DNA from: a virus
Lineage: Duplodnaviria; Heunggongvirae; Uroviricota; Caudoviricetes
Length of the DNA stretch: 64,000 bases
Virus record (IMG/VR): IMGVR_UViG_2721755651_000007
Direction: 5' to 3' (one strand)
The position numbers and the translations under genes are program-made. The notes beneath the pieces were generated by a model. It did not search any database and was not told the origin of the DNA. It saw only the letters and a list, made by a program, of their open reading frames with translations. Below are positions 2,756 to 56,367 of the stretch, piece after piece (position 1 is the first letter of the stretch; every line of letters starts with the position of its first letter).

Positions 2756-3028
2756 TTACCTCCAGACGCGCTGACGGTAGCAGGCATGTGTCCGTGGCAG
2801 ATGTGCACGAACAGGAAGATATACAGAAACGGTCCAGGTCAGACGATCAGCGTTCAGACTCCGCTCCACACGGACACCGCGACGCAGATACGCCTCTTGA
2901 AGCATATCTGCCTCATCGATCGTACAGAACAGATAGTGAAACCAGCCATACTGAGGCGCACGAAAACGCCTCCCCTGCTTAATTTCCGGGTCGGCTTCAG
3001 AATTGTGGGATTTTATGTGTTGTGTCAT
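2756..3028 (-). CDS. hypothetical nin-region protein
   Basis: 90 aa ORF; divergent paralog at 51170..51448 in same position. Confidence 0.35.
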   Translation of the reverse strand: MTQHIKSHNSEADPEIKQGRRFRAPQYGWFHYLFCTIDEADMLQEAYLRRGVRVERSLNADRLTWTVSVYLPVRAHLPRTHACYRQRVWR

Positions 3029-3149: not shown

Positions 3150-3494
3150 TTACTTTAATAATTTCAGTGCCTTTACATCAACTTCAACACTGCTCAGGTC
3201 TTTATCAATTTCACCCTCAATTCTTACTTTGTCTTTCGGAGAAACATTCTGCCCGGCCCATACGCTGTCATCAATATCCGTGACAATTGTCCCGCTATTG
3301 TCACGAAACTCATAACGTTCATCACCCACTTTTTTAACGATGCTCCCTTCAAGGATAACCCATGCATCATCCTTCAGTTCTTTTGCCTGCGCTACTGTTG
3401 AACGCTCTGCTTCTGGCCCCTGGAAACCACCCTGCTGTGCAAAAGCGCCAAAAGACACACCGGAAATAAGTGCTGCAATCAATACCTTTTTCAT
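3150..3494 (-). CDS. YgiW/YdeI-family periplasmic OB-fold (BOF) protein, prophage cargo
   Basis: Signal peptide MKKVLIAALISGVSFGAFA; QGGFQGP...V.L.G.I.......F.D.SG.I.V.ID pattern typical of YgiW family. Confidence 0.7.
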   Translation of the reverse strand: MKKVLIAALISGVSFGAFAQQGGFQGPEAERSTVAQAKELKDDAWVILEGSIVKKVGDERYEFRDNSGTIVTDIDDSVWAGQNVSPKDKVRIEGEIDKDLSSVEVDVKALKLLK

Positions 3495-3613
3495 TCATAG
3501 TCCTCTTTCAGAGATGAACATTCAAACAGCATTTTCAGTATGGTAAAGCGCGGGTGCGTTGAGGATGCCTGACACATCAGAGGTGGCGGGAGATTACTCC
3601 CCCGCCTGGTCTC

Positions 3614-3769
3614 TTACTTCTCAGATTCGTAGTCTACGAAGACAGCGACCTCCGTCTGACCGGTTCGGATTCGCACCTCGCAGAGGTCTTTCCTCGTTAC
3701 CAGTGCCGTCACTATGACGGTTAAACAGATGACGATCAGGGCGATTAACATCGCCTTTTGCTGCTTCAT
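3614..3769 (-). CDS. hok: Hok-family type I toxin (HokD/RelF-like), with overlapping mok frame extending to 3826
   Basis: MKQQKAMLIALIVICLTVIVTALVTRKDLCEVRIRTGQTEVAVF matches Hok/Gef family; longer overlapping ORF 3614..3826 = mok-like. Confidence 0.9.
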   Translation of the reverse strand: MKQQKAMLIALIVICLTVIVTALVTRKDLCEVRIRTGQTEVAVFVDYESEK

Positions 3770-4059
3770 AGCCTGCTTCTCCTTGCCTTTCGGCACGTAA
3801 GAGGCTAACCTACATGTGTTCAGCATGGATTGAGCCTCAGATTAATGTTAAGCGTCTTGCAGGACGCGTAATGTTAACTGGGGCTTTTCTCTATCTGCCG
3901 TTGGTGTTCATGCCCGAGGCAGATAGCCTCAAGCACCCGCAGCAATTCTACTTAACTATCCTTTTCCCGCAAACCGTTTTTATCCCCAGCGGCAAATCGA
4001 ATACACCACCAGCGCCACCGCCATCGCAATTCCTACCGTTGTGAATGCTTCAGGCCAGG

Positions 4060-4617
4060 TCATTGATTCACCTCCTGCGGCGGTTCTGGTAGCGACATCC
4101 AGTGGGTTGCTTGCCTAAGATCATTACCCGGACTAACTGCTATACCTCCGCGCCGGAACGTGCCTCCGAGATAGCGTGCGGAATATATTAATGGCCCAGC
4201 CTCGCTATCGATATTCATCGAAATAAGCACGTTCTGGCTCTTTTCAGGCATTCGCTCAGTACAGCTTATCCAGCCATCCAGAGTTATCGGAGATCTGGTT
4301 GACGTTTCCGAGATTTCCCGAAAATTGTTGGTTGACGAATTCTTATTTTCCCGAAAGTTTCCGGCCTGAAGCATGGCGACGCGGCAGGCGTTCCAGCCAT
4401 CAGCATATGTTTTAGTTACACCGTCGAGATGGCAGGTAAGCAAATCCATTTCATCAGGCACTACCATTGCTATCGGCTCTGCTTCCAGTGATGCCAGCGC
4501 GATACGAAACACATTAGCCAGCAGGCTGTCTGAAGACTTGTTATCGTGCGCCGAGTCGCTCAGGAAGCCTGTGATGTATGATTTAATCTCCGCGCGTTCT
4601 CTGGTAATAGTGCTCAT
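4060..4617 (-). CDS. DUF551-like phage protein
   Basis: C-terminal THWMSLPEPPQ motif typical of DUF551. Confidence 0.55.
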   Translation of the reverse strand: MSTITRERAEIKSYITGFLSDSAHDNKSSDSLLANVFRIALASLEAEPIAMVVPDEMDLLTCHLDGVTKTYADGWNACRVAMLQAGNFRENKNSSTNNFREISETSTRSPITLDGWISCTERMPEKSQNVLISMNIDSEAGPLIYSARYLGGTFRRGGIAVSPGNDLRQATHWMSLPEPPQEVNQ

Positions 4618-4618
4618 A

Positions 4619-4837
4619 TCAGTTTTCCTTATACGGATTAATTTTATTGTGCAGTGCGCTGAATGATTCCCATGTCACATCGGTATATAGCTCAATAACT
4701 GGTTCAAATGTCCTTCCAATTATCCAGACCAGTAATAGCGGGGATATCGGTATCATCAACACTATAAACAGAATGAAAAACAGAAACTCTGTTGTTCTGC
4801 TCTTTCGTGGGTAATTTTTTTCTAAATAATGTTTCAT
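4619..4837 (-). CDS. small single-pass membrane protein, hypothetical
   Basis: 72 aa with hydrophobic FLFFILFIVLMIPISPLLLVWIIG segment. Confidence 0.35.
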   Translation of the reverse strand: MKHYLEKNYPRKSRTTEFLFFILFIVLMIPISPLLLVWIIGRTFEPVIELYTDVTWESFSALHNKINPYKEN

Positions 4838-4964
4838 TTCTTACCGCCCTTTCGGGCGGCCTCCTGATGTTCTGAGGGTGCAGGAATCCCTCCGGTTAAG
4901 GATTTAATAAAAATCGTTTCTGATTTAAATCTTCAGTATTTAGTTGTTAGTTGGTTTATCGCCT

Positions 4965-5276
4965 TTATGCTTCAGCCTTATTTCGCAACCAGACACAAAC
5001 CGGGCCATCTTCCGTATCATGAATGGAACCAATAAACCAGCCATCGCCCTCTGGTCGTTCCGGTTCCCATGCAGAAATATCAGCATCACACGCATCAAGG
5101 TCAGCACATCCTTCATCTCTGAAGCAGAGGACGTATTGAAGATTATTTTCCTCCATCCAGGCGTTAAACTCTTCCGTTGAAATATATTCCCGACCATCAC
5201 AGAATTTTTCATATTCAGGATGTGTCCAGTAGCCATATCCGTCACGAACTACCGGCATTTCTTTAATTTCACTCAC
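4965..5276 (-). CDS. acidic hypothetical phage protein
   Basis: 103 aa ORF, Cys/Asp/Glu rich; no family recognised. Confidence 0.4.
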   Translation of the reverse strand: MSEIKEMPVVRDGYGYWTHPEYEKFCDGREYISTEEFNAWMEENNLQYVLCFRDEGCADLDACDADISAWEPERPEGDGWFIGSIHDTEDGPVCVWLRNKAEA

Positions 5277-5496
5277 TGTTAACCTCCTGCAACGCTACAC
5301 GATACGCCTTCTTTATCCACGCCTTACTGCCATATAATTTCGTCTTCATAATAAACACACCTGCACGACTCGCCGATATCCCCGGACAGGTTAACAGCAC
5401 AGCATCCACCACACGGTTATGCTTCCGAAACTCCATTACAGTACTGCTGATAACCACCTGCCCCACCGGGCCGTAATCCTGATACAGGATTTTCAC
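5269..5496 (-). CDS. hypothetical protein
   Basis: 75 aa ORF, GTG start overlapping stop of IS-disrupted upstream gene. Confidence 0.35.
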   Translation of the reverse strand: MKILYQDYGPVGQVVISSTVMEFRKHNRVVDAVLLTCPGISASRAGVFIMKTKLYGSKAWIKKAYRVALQEVNSE

Positions 5497-5598
5497 GCAG
5501 ACACCCTCCTGTCGAAATAAACGTAGTTATTCACTATGCGCAGCGGCATGCCTAATTGAACCGCCCCGGGTTTCCTGGAGAGTGTTTTATCTGTGAAC

Positions 5599-6489
5599 TC
5601 AGGCTGCCAGATCATCGTTTCCGATGGAAGCATAATAAGCTTTTTCTGCTTCTGCCGGAGGAGTATGGCCCAGCCTTCCCAGCAATCGTCGATTGTTATA
5701 CCAGTCCACCCACGTTAGTGTGGCCAGTTCCACTTCTGCACGGTTTTTCCAGCTCTTACGGTGTATTACCTCCGCTTTGTAAAGACCATTGATGCTCTCA
5801 GCCATCGCGTTGTCATACGAGTCGCCTGTACTCCCTGTTGATGCCAGTAATCCGGCTTCTTTTAGTCGCTCCGTATAGGCCAGTGACACATACTGAGAGC
5901 CTTTATCGCTGTGATGGATGGTGCCAGACGGACGACGGGCCCACAACGCCTGCTCCAGCGCATCCAGCACGAATGTCGTTTCCATAGACGATGAGACCCG
6001 CCACCCCACGATGTATCCGGCAAACACATCAATGATAAACGCCACATAGACGAAGCCCTGCCATGTGCTGACGTAAGTAAAATCAGCCACCCACAGCTGG
6101 TCAGGTCGTTCTGCCACGAACTGACGGTTTACGCGGTCGCCTGCGGCAACGGCTTTCCGGCTGATGGTCGTACGGACCTTTTTACCCCGGAGAACACCGG
6201 CAAGTCCCATAACCGCCATGAGACGTGCCACTGTACATCTGGCCACCCTGATTCCTTCCCGTAACAACTGACGCCAGACTTTACGCACACCGTACACCTG
6301 ATGATTTTCATCGTATACGCGCTGTATCTCTCTCTTCAGCCAGTCGTCGTGCTGCGCACGGGCACTGCGTTTATCCGGATGATGTCGCTGTTGCTGACAA
6401 TGGTAATACGTTGACGGGGCAATATGCAGTTCGCTGCATACCGGTCCGACCCCGTACTGCTCACGCAGCTTATCCAGCAGTGGCATCAT
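5599..6489 (-). CDS. IS3-family transposase OrfB (DDE integrase domain)
   Basis: 296 aa; WVADFTYV...HSDKGSQY...YDNAMAES motifs. Confidence 0.9.
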
Positions 6490-6812
6490 TTTTTCCAGAG
6501 GCGGTCGAACTCCGCCTTCGCAAAATAAGCGGAAGCCTGGCGAAGGATATCGTTACTGCGGCGCAGTTCACGATTTTCACGTTCCAGCTCTTTCAGACGC
6601 TGACGTTCAGCGCTGGTGAGCCCACCATCACCGCCCCCGGTATCCCGCTCATGCTGGCGAACCCAGACACGCAGAGTCTCCGGCGTACAGCCAATCTTTG
6701 GGGCAATGGAACAAATTGCCGCCCACTGTGAGTCATATTCATCCTGACTTTCCAGAACCATACGAATCGCCCGCTGACGGACTTCGGGGGAAAAACGAGT
6801 ATTTTTAGTCAT
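6486..6812 (-). CDS. IS3-family transposase OrfA (HTH)
   Basis: 108 aa; overlaps orfB as expected for -1 frameshift fusion. Confidence 0.9.
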
Positions 6813-6866
6813 CCTGTTTACCTCTTTCTCAGGGAGTTTAGTCTCCAGGATTTCCGGGGCGGTTCA

Positions 6867-7087
6867 AATTTTCTGGCAATTTCCCTTCTTTGCATGCCTC
6901 TCTGATGCAGTTGCCGCGCCAGCTCAATATCACGCTGAGAATATTTTGCCGACGGGTGAAAATCACCACGTAACATCATGCTGATGCCCAGCTCCCGTGC
7001 CTTCGTTCTCACTGCCGCTTCAGTTCGTCCGATAAGTGCGCCAACGCTTTTTACCTTCATCGTTCCCGCACACTGCCGGAGTATCAT
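6867..7087 (-). pseudogene. small HTH-like gene interrupted by the IS insertion (3' end at 5497..5556)
   Basis: Frame MKVKSVGALIGRTEAAVRTKARELGI...REIARK runs into IS end; joining flanks across the target duplication restores an ORF ending just before 5496. Confidence 0.5.
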
Positions 7088-7119
7088 GATTTCCGCCCGG
7101 CACCACGTCTTCCACCCAC

Positions 7120-7854
7120 TCACCGCTGCTGTTCTCTGGTGGCGGTAATATCCCGGAGAATATCCCGGCACTTGTTCAGCTCCCGCAGCGCGGCGCAGAC
7201 TCGCTCCCACTTCTGAACCTGACCTTTTGCCCGGCGCAGCTCGCGGTTAGCCACATGCAGCGATGGTAAAATCAGACCATCCGGATGCTTTCTGGTGAAC
7301 GACGGCTGTGACTGCACTGTGACCGCCACACTTTCCGTTTTTATTTCTTCCTGTGTTTCCGCTTCCCCGACTGGTAACGCAACACCTGCTGGCTGAGGAA
7401 AGGCTTTACCATCCGTTTCCGTTATGGATGCGGCTTTCGGCTCTGCCGGTAAATCAGCGCCCGGTATGCAGTACCGAAATTTACCGCCCTGATTCACGCG
7501 AATCAGACGCCCTTTGCTGATTGCCATGGCCAGTGATGAATTCGCCCGGCGGGAGGTAATCCCGAACATCAGTGCCAGCTCATCCGCCGTTTGTGGGCCA
7601 TGATGTTCAATCGCCTCAGTCAGCATTTGCGCTGTCACTTTCGGTACCGGTGACACTGGTTCACTTTCACCAGTCTGAGTCAGCCACCACATCGACCCCT
7701 TGTTATCCGCTTCACCACGGCGCTTCAGTTTCCACAGTTCGTTGACAGCATCTTCGCGGCTGATTCCAAGGCGCGATGCCACTACCTGTGAAGAGGCTTT
7801 TTTCAGTGCTTTCAGTGCGTCAAATACGGTTTCCATTAATATTTCCTCCGACAA
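7120..7854 (-). CDS. conserved prophage hypothetical protein downstream of P (DUF1627-like by recollection)
   Basis: 244 aa; paralog 54105..54686. Confidence 0.45.
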
Positions 7855-7869
7855 AATCGTTTCTCAGAT

Positions 7870-8532
7870 TCAAATAAAACCAGCTGCCTTCCGGCGTTCG
7901 TATTCCTGTTTCAGCCGTTCAATTGGCGTTGGCCCTTGCGGGTGTTTCGCCCCTTCCAGTTGTCGTCGCACTGGCGGAACACTCATCCCGTTACCAACAT
8001 GCTTTGCCCATTTCGTCAGTTGCCGTTCCGCAAGTCGTTTTAACTCACCTTGCGTCATCTGGCGCTCAATCCCTCTGGTACGCATTTCGAGGCAGATGTG
8101 GTACAGCACAGGCTGTGGCCACGGGTATTTATCACTCCCGTCGTATCGCCAGGATTCATTGCGCCAGCGCCGGTACTCTTCCATCACGGCATCCACCGTA
8201 AGACCAAATGGATTTGCCCCACTCTCCGAAATCAGCGCAACAAACTCAGCCAGGTCCGGGGGCCACGTTTCACCCGCCCGGCAGCGGTCCATGCACTGAC
8301 GGCACACCAGACGGATTTGCTGTTCAGTCATCGCACCAATCTGGGCAATCCAGAGCTTCGAAGGTGCGGCCCCGTTCTTCTGAGTCCAGCGGTTCGAATA
8401 CACCTCCCCCATGAGCTCCCACAGCTTCCAGGCCGTTTCCGTTGCTGATAAATCCGTTGTCACGTTCCCACTGTTCGCGTGCAGCCCGGATTTCCTGAAC
8501 TGCCCGTGATGCCGTGCCACCTGATGCTGCAT
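7870..8532 (-). CDS. replication protein P-like (helicase loader)
   Basis: Resembles lambda P incl. YPW..Y/H....LEMR region; N-terminal ~200 nt overlap O frame, start uncertain. Confidence 0.55.
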   Translation of the reverse strand: MQHQVARHHGQFRKSGLHANSGNVTTDLSATETAWKLWELMGEVYSNRWTQKNGAAPSKLWIAQIGAMTEQQIRLVCRQCMDRCRAGETWPPDLAEFVALISESGANPFGLTVDAVMEEYRRWRNESWRYDGSDKYPWPQPVLYHICLEMRTRGIERQMTQGELKRLAERQLTKWAKHVGNGMSVPPVRRQLEGAKHPQGPTPIERLKQEYERRKAAGFI

Positions 8533-9373
8533 GGCTTCCCCCCTTGCTGACTGGTTTTACCTGTGCCCTGACGTGCTGCACGTGGCGGGCAAATTTCTGC
8601 TCCCACTGAACCTGCGTGAAAACCTTCCCCTCCGCCATCCAGTAATCCCGGAATGCGGCAAGCTCAGCAGGTGTAAATTCCGGCTCAGGCAGAGCCATAC
8701 CCCACACTGCTGCCCGTTGTCGAAAATCCGGCGACGGCTGCCAGACAGTAGTCATCGAAAATTTCCCGATCGGTTCGCTCAGGCCGTCCAGGTATTCAGG
8801 TTCGGCTGTCTGCAACGGCGCACCATTCGACTCACTGGTCGGAATACTCTCGCGCGCGTTATGTGTGGGGTTTAATTCTGTATCTGTATCTTTATCTGTA
8901 TCTTTATCTGTCGTGACTTGTCGTGACAGATGCGTGACACGTCGTGACTCATCGTGACAATCAGCATTATGTTTCCGCAGCTTTTCCCGCTCCCGCTGCG
9001 CTCTCTTGCGCTCTGCCGGGGATTTTGCCGTTTGCGAAACGTTACCATTGTCCTCTTTCAGCACCTGACGTTTTTCCCATCCGGAAATAAGGTCACCATC
9101 CAGAACCCGCCCCTGCATTGCATGCAAAATTGAATCAATTACGTCTTCCGTCACATCAAGCGCACTTGCTAAATCTTCCGTCGTGACATCAATGTGACCA
9201 CGTAGTGACACGCCGTGACATGTCGTGACATTTCGTGACGCGCTCACCAGAAGATGGATATACACTGCCATCACTGTTGCGATTGGCTGTCCTGATACCC
9301 TGGCAATCGTTCGCCACTTGGGGTCATTTGGCATGTCATGCCACAATCTGAGCCAGGCATTAGCCATACTCAC
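8324..9373 (-). CDS. replication initiator O-like protein containing origin iterons
   Basis: 349 aa; internal TDKDTDKDTD encoded by DNA repeats; position upstream of P. Confidence 0.6.
   Translation of the reverse strand: MSMANAWLRLWHDMPNDPKWRTIARVSGQPIATVMAVYIHLLVSASRNVTTCHGVSLRGHIDVTTEDLASALDVTEDVIDSILHAMQGRVLDGDLISGWEKRQVLKEDNGNVSQTAKSPAERKRAQREREKLRKHNADCHDESRRVTHLSRQVTTDKDTDKDTDTELNPTHNARESIPTSESNGAPLQTAEPEYLDGLSEPIGKFSMTTVWQPSPDFRQRAAVWGMALPEPEFTPAELAAFRDYWMAEGKVFTQVQWEQKFARHVQHVRAQVKPVSKGGSHAASGGTASRAVQEIRAAREQWERDNGFISNGNGLEAVGAHGGGVFEPLDSEERGRTFEALDCPDWCDD
8881..8960. repeat. iteron-like direct repeats (candidate ori), cluster 1
   Basis: TCTGTATCTTTA repeats then five GTGAC-containing units phased at ~10 bp. 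Confidence 0.6.
9181..9240. repeat. iteron-like direct repeats, cluster 2
   Basis: Six GTGAC-containing units at ~10-bp spacing inside O-like gene. Confidence 0.55.
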
Positions 9374-52151: not shown

Positions 52152-52486
52152 AGCCTGCTTCTCCTTGACCTTTCGGTCCGTAAGAGGCAATCTATATGTG
52201 ACGAGCATATAGGGGCCTCACTTCGATTTATAGTCGGGTGGGGCTTTTATCTATCTGCCGTTGGTGTTCATGCCCGAGGCAGATAGCCTCAAGCACCCGC
52301 AGCAATCCTACTTAACTCTGCCGTTACAGCAAACCGTTTTCGCCCGATATGGGAATTCCCATATCGGAATGAATTCAGTTCACCTGGCGAGGCTTAGCGT
52401 ACAATTTTTTCCGTTTTGTGAGCTGCCCCTACATGCCGCTGGCGCGGCATCCGGAAAAAGAATCCACGTCCTGAAGGACGAGGATG

Positions 52487-53245
52487 TCAAGTGCCTTTCC
52501 TGGTCCAGCCATATTTTTTGAATGCAGGCGCCGCTTCATCGGTTTGTAGCCATTCTGCAAATCGACGGGTTTCATCATTTGCATCCTGACGTACTGTAAT
52601 GTTCATATCACGCCATATCACGTAGTCTGGCGCTATTTCCACGACATCACCAATTTCTGGATTACTGGCTGCCCAGTCAGCCCAGGTTATCCAGACATCT
52701 GCTCCAGGCTGATTCTCAAGAGCCTTACGTGCAGTTCCGCTATTGGGCGCATATAAAATAATATTTTTTCGGATTGCGGCGACAGTTTCTATATTCCCTT
52801 TACGTCCGGCAATATCTTCCCAGACGCCAGTGCCTGATGTATTACTGGTACCACCACCATCATTAACAATTACGCCAATCCCAGGTCTGGTCAGGTCGTC
52901 AATACTCCGGATATTTTTAGGATTACCTTTCTTTACCAGTAAAATACTTTTTCGCAGATAAAGAGGCTGAATATCTTTTTCACTGAAGCTGTCTTTATGG
53001 TCCCGAATGATAGCCAGAGCAGATTGTTCTGATGCGCCAAACAAGATATCTGCATTTTTTTTGGCATCTTCATTCCATTTGTTCTGTGGGCCGTAATGAA
53101 CGTTCACTATAATACCTGTTTTTTCGGCATAAAGTTTGGCTGCATCAAGCAAGGCTGTATGCGGGCCACCAGGACCATACAGATTGATATCAGCATAAGC
53201 AGCAGAAGACAGGAATATTAAAAAACCTGCCATTATGTTCCTCAT
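52487..53245 (-). CDS. orphan ModA/WtpA-like periplasmic anion-binding protein, prophage cargo
   Basis: Signal peptide; PBP type II pattern resembling ModA (...ADILFGASEQ..., ...AAPAFKKYGW...); no adjacent permease/ATPase. Confidence 0.5.
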   Translation of the reverse strand: MRNIMAGFLIFLSSAAYADINLYGPGGPHTALLDAAKLYAEKTGIIVNVHYGPQNKWNEDAKKNADILFGASEQSALAIIRDHKDSFSEKDIQPLYLRKSILLVKKGNPKNIRSIDDLTRPGIGVIVNDGGGTSNTSGTGVWEDIAGRKGNIETVAAIRKNIILYAPNSGTARKALENQPGADVWITWADWAASNPEIGDVVEIAPDYVIWRDMNITVRQDANDETRRFAEWLQTDEAAPAFKKYGWTRKGT

Positions 53246-54104
53246 AAAAAACTCCTTTTATTGGTTATCATGAAATAAAGTTATAAACACTACAAATAAT
53301 ATATATTACATCCAGATAAACTTATCCGACTTTACCTCGTGCATAGCTTGTTATTTAAAGTCAACAAAATAAGGAAAATTATACGCATATTGAAGAGTAT
53401 AAACCTTACATGTTGATTACATTTTTGTAATCAACATCCTGTTTGGAATAGCCAGCCTTTAATGGATAACTATTTCTGACAATGCAATGAGTATAATCAA
53501 GTCCATCTTCCACTGAGAATTAGAGGCGGCATGCTTTTTCCGGCTCTTGCCGGATATCCGTAATTGTCCATAATCTGCAGATTTATACCTTCTGCATGAC
53601 CTGTCAGCGAAAATTTGTCCGGTGTTTCTACGGGAATGACATCAAAAGTTACACGCACTCGCGTTACCGTGTAGACCTACTTTCCTGCACTTGCAAGATC
53701 ACAGTGGTGTAACCGTAACAGGAATTTATTCTCTGGACCGGCAGTAAATCCCTGAGTGGCGTGGTTCCCATATCAATTTCCCGCCAGGCAGCCTCCATTG
53801 CCAGCGTACAGGCTGGAGCCATGACCTGCCCTTTAAATCTGGCCCGACCATCCCACCGGACGTGTTCTTCTCCCCTGAACTTAGGTACAGTCATCTCCAG
53901 TGGCACAAAAGTGTCAGCGCCATAATTTTTGACCGTTATCGCGCTACGGATATTTTGTTGACTGGTGAAAATCACCCCGCAGAATCAGGCTTATTCCCTT
54001 AACCTGGGCTTTCATCCTGACCGCCGCCTCACTACGACCAATCAGACTGCCGATGCATTTTACCTTCATTGTTAGTATCATGATTTCAGGCCTGCACCAT
54101 CCGC

Positions 54105-54686
54105 TCATTGCCCGGACTTCCGACAAATCCCGGCAACCATATCCCGGTGCTTGTTCAGCTCCCGCAGCGCGGCGCAGACTCGCTCCCACTTCTGGACATG
54201 ATTCTTCGCCCTACGCAGTTCGCGATTTGCCATATGCAGCGATGGCAAAATCAAATCATCTTCTCGCGTTGCAGTAAACGATGGCAGCGACTGCACAATG
54301 TCCGCCACAGTTTCTGTTTTAATATCTTCCTGTGTTGCATCTTTCTGTACCGGTAACGCAACACCGGCTGGCTGAGGAAAGGCTTTACCATCGGTTTCCG
54401 CTACCGATTCAACTTTCGGCTCTGCTGGTAAATTATCACCTGGTATGCAGTAACGAATTTTACCGTTCTGGTTTACGCGAATCAGACGACCTTTGCTGAT
54501 TGCCATTGCCAGCGTTGAAGCAACTTTGCGGGATGTTGTACCGAACAGCGTAGCCAGTTCATCCGCCGTTTGTGGTCCGCGTTGTTCAATCGTCGCGGTT
54601 AAATCGCACTCTGAGATTTTCGCTTCTGTTGCCGTGGTGGTTTCTTCTGGCGCTGGCTGTTCCTGCTGAACGTTGTTATCAGCCAC
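54105..54686 (-). CDS. conserved prophage hypothetical protein (paralog of 7120..7854)
   Basis: 193 aa, shared C-terminal region with paralog. Confidence 0.45.
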
Positions 54687-54872
54687 ACGCCAGGTGTATA
54701 CGCTTTTATCAACGAAGCCAGCCTTTTTCAGTTCCCACAGCTCGTTCAGTACTTCTTCACGACTGATATCAAGTCGCGCAGCCAGCTATACCGACGTGGC
54801 TTTTCCCATCGCTTTCAGTGCGTCAAAAACAGTCTCCATAAATTTCCTCCCGGTAAAAAATCACTTCTCAAC

Positions 54873-55538
54873 TCAAACAAAACCAGCCGCTTTCCGGCGT
54901 TCATATTCCTGTTTCAGCAACTCAATTGGCGTTGGCCCCGACGGGCGTTTGGGGGCCGCCAGTTGTCGCCGGACTGGCGGAACGCTCAGGCCGTTACTAA
55001 CATGCTTTGCCCATTTCGTCAGTTGCCGTTCTGCAAGCCGTTTTAATTCCCCTTCGGTCATCTGGCGCTCAATCCCCTTTGAACGCATCTCGAGGCAAAT
55101 GTGATACAGCACAGGCTGAGACCACGGGTACTTATCACTTCCGTCGTATCGCCAGGACTCATTGCGCCAGCGGCGGTACTCCTCCATCACAGCATCCACC
55201 GTCAGACCGAATGGATTGGCTCCGCTTTTCGAAATCAGTGCCACAAACTCAGCCAGGTCCGGAGGCCATGTTTCACCCGCCCGGCAGCGGTCCATGCACT
55301 GGCGGCAGACCTGCCGGATTTGCTGCTCAGTCATCGCGCCAATCTGTGCAATCCAGAGCTTCGAAGGTGCGGCCCCGTTCTTCTGGATCCAGCGGTTCGA
55401 ATAAACCACCCCCATGAGTTCCCACAGCTTCCAGGCCGTTTCCGTCGCTGATAAATCCGTTTTCACGTTCCCACTGCTCACGTGCTGCCCGAATTTCCTG
55501 AACTGCCCGTGATGCGGTGCCACCTGGTGCTGCTGCAT
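54873..55538 (-). CDS. replication protein P-like
   Basis: 221 aa paralog of 7870..8532. Confidence 0.55.
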   Translation of the reverse strand: MQQHQVAPHHGQFRKFGQHVSSGNVKTDLSATETAWKLWELMGVVYSNRWIQKNGAAPSKLWIAQIGAMTEQQIRQVCRQCMDRCRAGETWPPDLAEFVALISKSGANPFGLTVDAVMEEYRRWRNESWRYDGSDKYPWSQPVLYHICLEMRSKGIERQMTEGELKRLAERQLTKWAKHVSNGLSVPPVRRQLAAPKRPSGPTPIELLKQEYERRKAAGFV

Positions 55539-56367
55539 GGTTTACCCCTTTGCTGACTGGTTTAACCTGCGCCCTGACGTGATTTACGTGACGGGCGAAT
55601 TTCTGCTCCCACTGAATCTGCGTAAACACTTTCCCCTCCGCTGCCCAGTAGTCCCGGAAGGCGGCAAGTTCAGCAGGTGTAAATTCTGTCTCCGGCAAAG
55701 CCATCCCCCACAACGCAGCCCGTCGTCGAAAATCCCGTGACGGATACCAGCTATCGCTCATCGGGAATTTTCCGATGGGTTCGCTCAGGCCATACAGGAA
55801 TACAGGGGGGGCTGCCTGTAACGACAAAACTTCCTGCTCACTGGTCGGAGCACTCTCGCGTGCGTTATGTGTGGGGTTTAGATCTTTGGGTTCCTTTGGG
55901 TTCCGTGATCCGTTTTTGGGTGTCTTTGATGGAAAATTTGGGTGTCTTTGGTTATTTTCCATGCAGCTAAGAGTTCTGTTTTTGGGTCTGTTTTGTGCTG
56001 AAACATAACCATTTTCGGTACTGTTTTTATTAACAGCACCAATTTTACCCACCTTTAAAGACTCCCGTTTTTGGGTGTATTCAGGCTCGGCAACACTTTC
56101 TTCTACACCGATAAGTCGGTACACCACAATTTGCTTTGTTCTGCCTTTTCTCTCACCGGTATCAACAATTAACCCAATCTCCATCAGGTGTCGTAAGCTG
56201 TCCTGCACAGTCTTTTTGTTCAGTTCCGTTACTTCTGCCAGTGCAGATACAGACGGGTATGCACACAAATCGGCACCGCACATATCAGCAAGCCAGGTCA
56301 ATACTGACTTACTGGATGAACTGCCGGTTTTCACCTTTTTAGCCCATCGTAGTGCATCGATACTCAT
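55327..56367 (-). CDS. replication initiator O-like protein, N-terminal domain distinct from prophage A
   Basis: C-terminal half near-identical to 8324..9373 product, N-terminal HTH region different; contains TTTGGGT-type repeats. Confidence 0.6.
   Translation of the reverse strand: MSIDALRWAKKVKTGSSSSKSVLTWLADMCGADLCAYPSVSALAEVTELNKKTVQDSLRHLMEIGLIVDTGERKGRTKQIVVYRLIGVEESVAEPEYTQKRESLKVGKIGAVNKNSTENGYVSAQNRPKNRTLSCMENNQRHPNFPSKTPKNGSRNPKEPKDLNPTHNARESAPTSEQEVLSLQAAPPVFLYGLSEPIGKFPMSDSWYPSRDFRRRAALWGMALPETEFTPAELAAFRDYWAAEGKVFTQIQWEQKFARHVNHVRAQVKPVSKGVNHAAAPGGTASRAVQEIRAAREQWERENGFISDGNGLEAVGTHGGGLFEPLDPEERGRTFEALDCTDWRDD
55878..55995. repeat. iteron-like direct repeats (candidate ori) inside O-like gene
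   Basis: Repeated CTTTGGGTTCC / TTTGGGTGTCTTTG units. Confidence 0.5.

Follow-up and report, generated by a model that had tools for sequence, protein, structure and literature searches.

The paa/adfO adherence-associated gene beside hok in a lambdoid prophage of Escherichia coli O157:H7: limits of its cassette, an operator-like upstream element and the probable origin of a neighbouring palindrome

The stretch of tailed-phage DNA recorded as IMG/VR virus IMGVR_UViG_2721755651_000007 (64,000 nucleotides, analysed as a whole and called the window below) carries two prophages in tandem, A and B. A preliminary description of it, made from the letters alone, had pointed to an open reading frame (ORF) of prophage B next to hok, which was described as an orphan ModA-like binding protein, and to two palindromes flanking this ORF. 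In the lambdoid prophage B, the genes of this region were found to lie on the minus strand and in the transcription order DUF1627, a short ORF, fimbrial pieces, paa, Hok/Gef, two small ORFs, DUF968, RusA and DUF1133 (Table 1). By megablast, the segment 51900-54100 agreed at 100% along its entire length with hundreds of O157:H7 chromosomes of E. coli; at the identical loci, the RefSeq annotation reads "paa: AcfC family adhesin Paa" for the ORF and "hokD" for the adjoining gene. On this sequence identity, the supposed ModA-like ORF is paa, alias adfO or z2053, an adherence-associated cargo gene of an E. coli O157:H7 prophage.

The tandem arrangement of both prophages in the window is also found in strain EDL933; in strain PV15-279, prophage A is missing upstream. 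Of 5426 complete E. coli genomes, 574 carried the whole 1.6-kb module that includes paa, O26:H11, O111 and O145 strains among them; the module was also found in 11 phage records deposited as "PPompW", with the annotation Paa or adherence factor. According to a review of the O157 O-islands (PMC8565820), the gene, named adfO (z2053), lies in OI-57 and its product is likened to Paa of porcine enteropathogenic E. coli (EPEC); an adfO mutant adhered poorly to HeLa cells and secreted fewer proteins, and adfO constantly co-occurs with ckf (z2054), a hok-type "cell-killing factor". Paa of porcine EPEC is implicated by the literature in colonisation of the pig ileum, and induction of the paa transcript in bovine rumen and rectum contents was reported in a transcriptome study. 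No gene-level difference was found between the ORF in the window and paa/adfO of O157:H7 OI-57 (CP-933O), the DNA including ckf being 100% identical (EDL933 included) and the same hok-type adjacency being given in the literature. The locus is the paa/adfO "moron" of the ompW-integrated lambdoid prophage and part of O-island 57 / CP-933O. Earlier publications cover the gene and its family as well as its location in the prophage and its hok-type linkage, and the lambdoid cargo variation of the region is textbook knowledge. What is added here is small: the limits of the cassette, a fimbrial remnant, a truncated backbone gene, an upstream element with three half-sites and the probable KilA-N origin of the 24-bp palindrome. 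In searchable papers, no description was found of the first three or of the upstream element.

Table 1. Features of the paa region of prophage B and the corresponding parts of prophage A (coordinates of the window)
Feature	Position	Strand	Basis
Homologous block with prophage A 276-2773 (86%): DUF1133, RusA, DUF968	B 48698-51187		blastn
86-aa ORF, phrog_340, positional counterpart of ygiW in prophage B	51518..51778	-	lies in non-homologous block 51188-51923
Intact hok/sok-type type I toxin-antitoxin locus (hokD/ckf, z2054)	51910..52298	-	Pfam, Rfam, terminator scan, RefSeq
hok terminator	51910-51927	-	terminator scan
Homologous block with prophage A 3542-3980 (85%): hok/sok locus	B 51924-52340		blastn
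hok coding sequence	51996-52151	-	HOK_GEF (PF01848) 1.7e-21
sok/leader region	52149-52298	-	Rfam sok RF01794, 103.9 bits vs gathering score 59
mok-like overlapping 70-aa ORF	up to 52208	-	ORF list
24-bp perfect palindrome CCGATATGGGAATTCCCATATCGG, phage-backbone element upstream of hok	52344..52367	.	palindrome search
paa cassette, ~1.02 kb (gene, terminators, ~200 bp upstream)	52427..53449	.	85-89% identity to E. coli, Shigella and E. albertii plasmid homologues
Second G+C-rich REP-like hairpin GATGCCGC-GCCA-GCGGCAT, marking the cassette 3' end	52433..52450	-	fold; two plasmid-copy alignments end just after it
Terminator-like hairpin CGTCC-TTCA-GGACG with tail TGGATTCTTT, 7 nt past the paa stop	52457..52480	-	terminator scan
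paa/adfO (z2053) coding sequence, 252 aa, AcfC/PEB3/Paa-family solute-binding-fold protein	52487..53245	-	ORF list, RefSeq identity, Pfam, PDB, phrog_11834 4e-176
Sec-type signal peptide, residues 1-18, MRNIMAGFLIFLSSAAYA; predicted cleavage between AYA and D; no lipobox cysteine	53192..53245	-	read from sequence
AT-rich upstream region, 27.8% GC vs 51.6% in the window	53246..53500	.	composition
Invariant TATAAT, -10-like hexamer, 21 nt after the third half-site	53378..53383	-	alignment columns T138-T143
Operator-like element: perfect palindrome ATGTTGATTACA-N4-TGTAATCAACAT (53410-53437) and third half-site	53406..53437	-	palindrome search, homologue alignment
Inner piece of a fimbrial subunit gene, lacking both ends and carrying a frameshift and a stop	53447..53936	-	blast, three-frame translation
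Two out-of-frame pieces of the fimbrial-like gene	~53975-53497	-	ORFs
Homologous block with prophage A 6928-8874 (78%): replication-side genes	B 53937-55880		blastn
Backbone gene lacking its 3' part, where the module meets the replication side	53944..54108	-	alignment to prophage A ORF 6818..7210
DUF1627 gene	54105..54686	-	ORFs and Pfam
YgiW/BOF-family gene of prophage A, downstream of hok, before the DUF968 gene	3150..3494	-	PF04076 1.9e-33, 115 bits vs cut-off 25.8
Prophage A stretch standing where prophage B has the paa module: DUF551, DUF4014, small ORFs, IS3-family element	3981..6927	.	blocks, ORFs, Pfam

Paa matched the Pfam family SBP_bac_11 (PF13531) with an E-value of 5.5e-34. In a phmmer search of the Protein Data Bank (PDB), it was aligned with PEB3 of Campylobacter jejuni (1.2e-81; query 11-248) and with AcfC of Vibrio cholerae (4JB7; 3.5e-81; query 16-248); sulfate-binding protein structures gave weak matches of about 1e-4, and no ModA structure was among the PDB matches at E <= 0.01. 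The modA equivalog model TIGR01256 scored 18.3 bits against a cut-off of 62.5, model NF002920 scored 17.7 bits against 470, and the models of sulfate-binding proteins gave partial, weak matches far under their cut-offs. As judged from these comparisons, Paa belongs to the PEB3/AcfC/Paa family. Of the designation "orphan ModA-like", the orphan status, the signal peptide and, as a prediction, the periplasmic-binding fold stood and the ModA family did not, so that "ModA-like" is valid at most at the level of the fold or the broad family. What Paa has in common with ModA/WtpA is the type II periplasmic binding fold as predicted for Paa, the broad Pfam family (PF13531, in which ModA is placed) and a manner of binding oxyanions through backbone and hydroxyl groups that for Paa is predicted; it differs from them in failing the equivalog model, in matching no ModA structure and in having no modBC genes. 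The fold itself was assigned by homology to the PEB3 and AcfC crystals and by Pfam, a single-sequence AlphaFold2 model being unusable (pLDDT 41, pTM 0.31).

PEB3 (PDB 2HXW, 3FIR, 3FJG, 3FJM, 3FJ7) was aligned with Paa from end to end. Both have a signal peptide, and the cleft motifs GPGGPH, SNTSGTG and PNSG(S/T)ARK, which we take to be ligand contacts in the PEB3 complexes, were identical or near-identical in the alignment. The N-terminus of Paa, MRNIMAGFLIFLSSAAYA followed by DINLYG, has no cysteine. The start of the crystallised mature PEB3 chain (residue 2 of 2hxw_A) was aligned to Paa residue 19, which fits the predicted cleavage after AYA. Several differences were also noted. The PEB3 structures 3FJG and 3FIR differ from each other at one position (Lys or Glu), where Paa has Thr, and the "DFNVS" stretch of PEB3, presumably its N-glycosylation sequon, is replaced by "DSFSE" in Paa. 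PEB3 is chromosomal, whereas the copy of Paa considered here is prophage cargo with a ligand that is only predicted.

The preliminary statement that the gene had no transporter partners was borne out. No permease or ATPase genes were annotated within +/-12 kb of paa or in the rest of the tandem prophage region; the neighbours of paa were hokD and a fimbrial pseudogene, and there was no linkage to modB or modC. The possibility, raised at the same time, that the ORF was a fragment of a transporter operon did not agree with the gene being full length and having a terminator of its own. Flanks of homologues were also scanned, the test for ABC ATPases being a crude search for a pair of motifs and permeases being judged by counts of hydrophobic segments only. 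No protein with both a Walker A and an LSGGQ motif was found within ~3 kb of 23 homologues from diverse taxa. Because none of these homologues adjoins an ABC ATPase, operation without an ABC transporter seems to be a trait of the Paa family and not an accident of one locus.

Other neighbours were found beside the homologues. The V. cholerae homologue (L074 1073-3729) lies directly downstream of a chemoreceptor gene (AcfB-like, with MCP, dCache and HAMP domains). The homologues of Burkholderia, Limnobacter and Winogradskyella (L085 585-3687, L087 722-3690 and L080 762-3687) lie directly 3' of a gene for a YeiH (PF03601) or SLAC1/TehA (PF03595) anion transporter, with a LysR-type regulator alongside, and those of Vibrio and Endozoicomonas are followed by a gene for a PF03640 secreted-repeat protein. 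These arrangements suggest that the Paa family partners with secondary anion transporters or sensors. AcfC of V. cholerae (4JB7), for which a 47% identity figure is given in PMC5976639, is a parallel in several respects: it shares the family with Paa, is exported, is encoded on a horizontally acquired virulence element and has no ABC transporter. However, acfC lies directly 3' of the chemoreceptor gene acfB, the MCP domains of which were confirmed in L074, whereas paa has no adjacent partner, and the element upstream of paa is unlike that of acfC. Control of acfB by ToxR/ToxT was described in the same paper.

From its family and its signal peptide, Paa may be expected to be exported via Sec and to bind an anionic phospho- or sulfo-ligand outside any transporter. 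The effect on adherence would then be indirect, exerted through signalling or through the state of the envelope and secretion, and Paa would not be a classical surface adhesin. The odds for such an indirect role were considered to be about even, and a point against it is that both Paa and PEB3 are named adhesins in the literature. The alternative, that Paa is a true surface-exposed or secreted adhesin (released, for example, by type 2 secretion) which binds sulfated or phosphorylated host glycoconjugates directly, is somewhat less probable. The name adhesin is used for Paa, AdfO and PEB3 alike and is retained in the RefSeq product name, and the reduced HeLa-cell adherence of the adfO mutant agrees with it. 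Mucin and the sulfated glycans heparin and chondroitin sulfate were bound by AcfC in an enzyme-linked immunosorbent assay (ELISA); the protein also steers chemotaxis, and its secretion has been proposed in classical V. cholerae (PMC5976639). In the same paper, however, AcfC of El Tor strains was periplasmic on fractionation and had no role in cell adhesion, and PEB3 was called periplasmic; in a recent paper, PEB3 was described as a transporter protein for phosphate-containing metabolites. The predicted fold and the motifs of Paa are those of periplasmic proteins that bind small anions, and no anchoring feature, either a lipobox or a beta-barrel, was recognised in its sequence.

To place paa within the prophage, prophages A and B were compared. 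The three homologous blocks obtained with blastn leave a variable slot on either side of hok. The prophage A gene that had been assigned to the YgiW/BOF family, an assignment confirmed by Pfam (Table 1), encodes a protein with a signal peptide (N-terminus MKKVLIAALISGVSFGAFA) and lies downstream of hok; a gene for a "NirD/YgiW/YdeI family stress tolerance protein" directly follows Hok/Gef in EDL933 also. The paa gene occupies the upstream slot, between hok and the replication-side genes. The two genes had been thought to occupy equivalent positions, which the homology blocks contradict: ygiW and paa are not alternatives at one site, and there was no one-for-one swap. The counterpart of ygiW by position in prophage B, a small phage ORF, has no similarity to YgiW.

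Two further observations concern these slots. The small ORFs 2756-3028 (-) and 51170-51448 (-), just upstream of the DUF968 genes, both belong to phrog_1212, with nucleotide homology that has largely decayed, so that the blastn blocks overstate the width of the slot downstream of hok. In prophage A, an IS3-family element with overlapping transposase ORFs of 108 and 296 aa lies at 5599-6812 (-), between DUF4014 and the replication-side genes; no insertion sequence is annotated at the matching position of prophage A in EDL933, so that the window stems from an O157 strain other than EDL933.

The block of prophage B that is not homologous to prophage A extends over 52341-53936, with the paa module at ~52382-53936, so that the interval 52152-53660 chosen in the preliminary description cuts through the module. 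A prophage of strain HUSEC2011 (L060), which has the same backbone without paa, carries, in this order, hok, the 24-bp palindrome, a 34-aa ORF, DUF551, DUF977 and DUF1627, and relative to it the foreign segment begins at 52382. In the same region, other prophages carry ibrAB, a KilA-N gene, an ORF6N gene or RelE/Doc toxin systems. The variable hok region is a case of ordinary lambdoid nin-region mosaicism. The notion of cargo exchange near hok was right in that prophage cargo lies in a variable region; what occurred was not a swap in a single slot, since a backbone gene was truncated and a fimbrial fragment was added.

The sequence comparisons indicate that the module is composite, consisting of a ~1.0-kb paa cassette common to plasmids and a fragment of a fimbrial gene. 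Positions 87/92 to 1099/1109 of the segment 52341-53936 matched more than 25 plasmids with differing surroundings, and the ends of the cassette coincided in phage and plasmid copies. At the 3' end, the terminator hairpin of paa is conserved in the plasmid-borne homologues, and the second hairpin is conserved in phage and plasmid copies, plasmid homology starting at 52427; the RNA of 52425-52490 was predicted to fold with -29.7 kcal/mol (z = -3.4). The 45 bp at 52382-52426 match neither the paa-less prophage of HUSEC2011 nor the plasmid copies.

The other part of the module is annotated in RefSeq as the pseudogene "fimbrial protein, frameshifted; internal stop" (window 53406-53939), and its part 53447-53903 (query 1107-1563) was 86% identical to the internal part of an intact chromosomal fimbrial gene of other E. 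coli. The fragment accompanied paa in every phage copy and in no plasmid copy. The intact relative (L004 6963-7550) is part of a chaperone-usher operon that includes a PapB/FocB-type regulator. In strain MS1665, this fimbrial operon adjoins pgtABC (phosphoglycerate transport regulators), which is curious, as PEB3 binds 3-phosphoglycerate. On the far side of the fimbrial fragment, the truncated ORF, when read from an upstream GTG (53944..54189, 81 aa), was aligned to the first 90 of the 130 residues of prophage A ORF 6818..7210 with 63% identity and ended at the junction. Because the alignment stops there, the acquisition of paa must have deleted part of this backbone gene.

The GC content of paa was 43.9%, deviating from that of the window, and the gene has its own terminator and is absent from this site in prophage A and in the HUSEC2011 prophage. 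In these respects, and in its probable own promoter and the presence of different genes at the site in relatives, paa resembles the morons and nin-region mosaics of lambdoid phages. It differs from them in not being a clean insertion, since several genes were replaced, one was truncated and a non-functional fimbrial fragment was brought along. In sum, a foreign, low-GC unit of ~1.0 kb lies, together with the fimbrial fragment, in the variable region between the replication genes and hok/sok; its insertion replaced genes present in related prophages and truncated the backbone gene.

The region upstream of paa was examined for regulatory signals. An AT-rich region of ~400 bp had been reported there; it does exist, and its strongly AT-rich stretch is shorter, ~255 bp (Table 1), the GC content of 53246-53660 being 34.7%. 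The palindrome noticed within it, previously given as near-perfect with 11-nt arms and a 6-nt spacer, proved to be perfect with arms of 12 nt and a spacer of 4 nt. Its core is ATTACA-N4-TGTAAT, and a third half-site, TGTAAG, follows 11 bp on, which gives the pattern TTAC-N6-GTAA-N7-GTAA at 53406-53430 with the three half-sites spaced at roughly one turn of the helix. The upstream alignment comprised four diverged homologues from E. coli, namely the phage copy of O157, two copies from plasmids and one from a chromosome, the match of the last covering the coding region only (~84% identity). The core ATTACAA(A/C)AATGTAATCA was invariant in the four, as were GTAAGGT and, 21 nt further, TATAAT; the outer positions of the stem varied without compensation (pCFS3246, no107). 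The tripartite pattern occurred exactly once per locus, upstream of the gene and on its strand, in the window, in L002, L003 and L005, and in Providencia alcalifaciens (L066; 67% protein identity), where the surroundings are unrelated and TATACT stands at 22 nt. In 200 shuffles of the 64-kb window it was not found at all.

No -35 hexamer could be recognised before the TATAAT, for which reason the consensus promoter scan did not call it. The TATAAT is a probable activator-dependent promoter of paa, with a predicted start near 53371, and the palindrome, judging by its conserved core and spacing, is probably an operator, in line with the earlier suggestion that a regulator might recognise it. Transcription would start from this invariant promoter and would be governed by a host-encoded dimeric regulator acting on ATTACA-N4-TGTAAT-N5-TGTAAG, with centres near -52 and -36. 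Since in no context does a gene for this regulator lie beside paa, it is probably a protein of the core genome. 

Candidate regulators were compared with the element. A Fur box agreed at only ~9 of 19 positions by eye, and z2053 is reported in the literature not to be Fur-regulated, so that Fur was rejected. None of the consensus sequences of CRP, FNR, TyrR, the Pho box, EvgA, GacA/UvrY and sigma-54 fitted the half-site and the spacing together. In the intergenic regions of the distant homologues adjacent to LysR genes, no ATTAC-N6-GTAAT-like dyad was found, and LysR is a lead only. Literature searches for the palindrome sequence returned nothing, and those on paa regulation returned nothing relevant.

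Three points weigh against this interpretation of the upstream region. The consensus scan proposed a weak promoter at 53519-53490, which would place the palindrome within a 5' leader. The homologues of E. albertii, Citrobacter, Edwardsiella, Aeromonas and Vibrio lacked the element in their upstream regions, and any link to a regulator is therefore not family-wide. Finally, the element lies ~12-20 bp from the upstream end of the cassette, where phage and plasmid homology breaks, and a role in cassette mobility is conceivable. It was therefore considered whether the palindrome is a structural end of the mobile cassette, such as a recombinase or transposase hairpin, or else a terminator or leader hairpin of a transcript from upstream. 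The other end of the cassette also bears a hairpin, the palindrome as RNA has a predicted fold of -15.1 kcal/mol (z = -4.5), and the weak promoter of the scan is located upstream of it. Selection for a hairpin is nevertheless disfavoured by the uncompensated outer stem, only the inner 6+4+6 core and the third, direct half-site being kept, and the spacing to the -10 hexamer is held at 21-22 nt even in the unrelated surroundings of Providencia. No U-tract follows the palindrome, and no transposase or recombinase is consistently adjacent to the cassette copies. On balance, a structural role was judged improbable.

The second palindrome, of 24 bp, had been described as perfect and was found exactly where it had been placed; it is not a feature of paa, however, since it recurs without that gene. 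It lies 3 bp past the end of the A/B homology and ~120 bp downstream of paa, and no match to it, with up to 3 mismatches allowed, was found in 100 shuffles. Near-identical copies were found with hok and without paa (L060), beside ibrAB at a place where no hok is annotated (L006) and immediately behind ORF6N genes (L011, L037, L061). In strain YDC107 (L059 2508-2531), the copy lies within a KilA-N gene adjoining hok, where it encodes ...RDMGIPISEL.... The exact 24-mer was present in 52 IMG/VR contigs, 12 of them with unrelated flanks, at 27-69% GC; its 20-bp core was found in at least 33 distinct flank contexts at 21-69% GC. Among the matches listed, all ORFs of at least 170 aa that contain the 20-bp core read it in the D-M-G-I-P-I-S frame; in most, the motif stands at residues 55-75, as it does in the annotated KilA-N gene of YDC107. 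Where the copies in lambdoid prophages are non-coding, ~12-25 nt of KilA-N-like flank were retained. Loci with the palindrome or its core include L023, L040, L043, L054 and about 30 others from viruses, and three diverged genes of the KilA-N kind kept it letter-perfect, with flanks ~60-70% alike by eye.

The simplest account of these data is that the 24-bp palindrome is one codon rendering of a conserved KilA-N motif. The non-coding copies are probably gene relics that mark recombination junctions, the copy in the window is not part of the paa cassette, and the wide GC spread is explained by an exact-string search among very many KilA-N genes. The unrelated flanks had also raised the suspicion of a mobile mini-element or of a library-linker artefact; this was rejected because a single reading frame is used, and random insertion would use all three. 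A functional role of the palindrome in the hok-paa arrangement, either as a regulator site or as an RNA hairpin shielding hok against transcription that runs on from paa, is improbable. Its position between the paa terminators and the hok leader, its stable fold (-18.3 kcal/mol, z = -4.4) and its perfect conservation in 40 viral contigs with the hok-paa arrangement are in line with such a role. It is, however, not an intrinsic terminator, because there is no U-tract on either strand; the copies outside the hok-paa arrangement, including those within KilA-N genes, argue against the role, and the hok locus of prophage A does without the palindrome.

The neighbouring hok/sok locus is intact (Table 1) and 85% identical to that of prophage A at 3542-3980. 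The 3' untranslated end of hok with the terminator (51906-51987, -) gave a sub-threshold Rfam match to isrK, a Salmonella prophage small RNA (24.9 bits against 50, E 0.012), which is probably just the terminator.

Taken as a whole, the data are best explained by a paa moron that lies in a foreign module, encodes an orphan binder of anionic ligands, may be expressed from a promoter controlled by the upstream element and is unrelated to the 24-bp palindrome; a probability of roughly 0.8 was assigned to this explanation. The weakest alternative, that the ORF encodes a molybdate/tungstate binder of the ModA type or is the remnant of an ABC transporter operon, is effectively refuted, the shared Pfam family and the weak modA and sulfate-binding matches being far outweighed by the scores under cut-off, the PEB3 and AcfC structure matches, the full-length gene with its terminator and the missing transporter genes both here and beside the homologues.

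A practical lesson for automated readers of genomes is that the paa locus should not be mistaken for a ModA-like orphan without a name. Paa may act as an adhesin or as a periplasmic sensor, and the conserved upstream element, together with the defined limits of the cassette, offers handles for finding the regulator and the signal of Paa. A bolder proposal, which was regarded as unlikely, is that the operator with three half-sites is read by a core-genome regulator common to Escherichia and Providencia and that Paa is an orphan periplasmic sensor of phospho- or sulfo-metabolites which feeds host signalling, as AcfC may do with AcfB, and is not an adhesin. If this were true, Paa would be a "plug-in" sensor that spreads horizontally and is connected to the regulation of its host.

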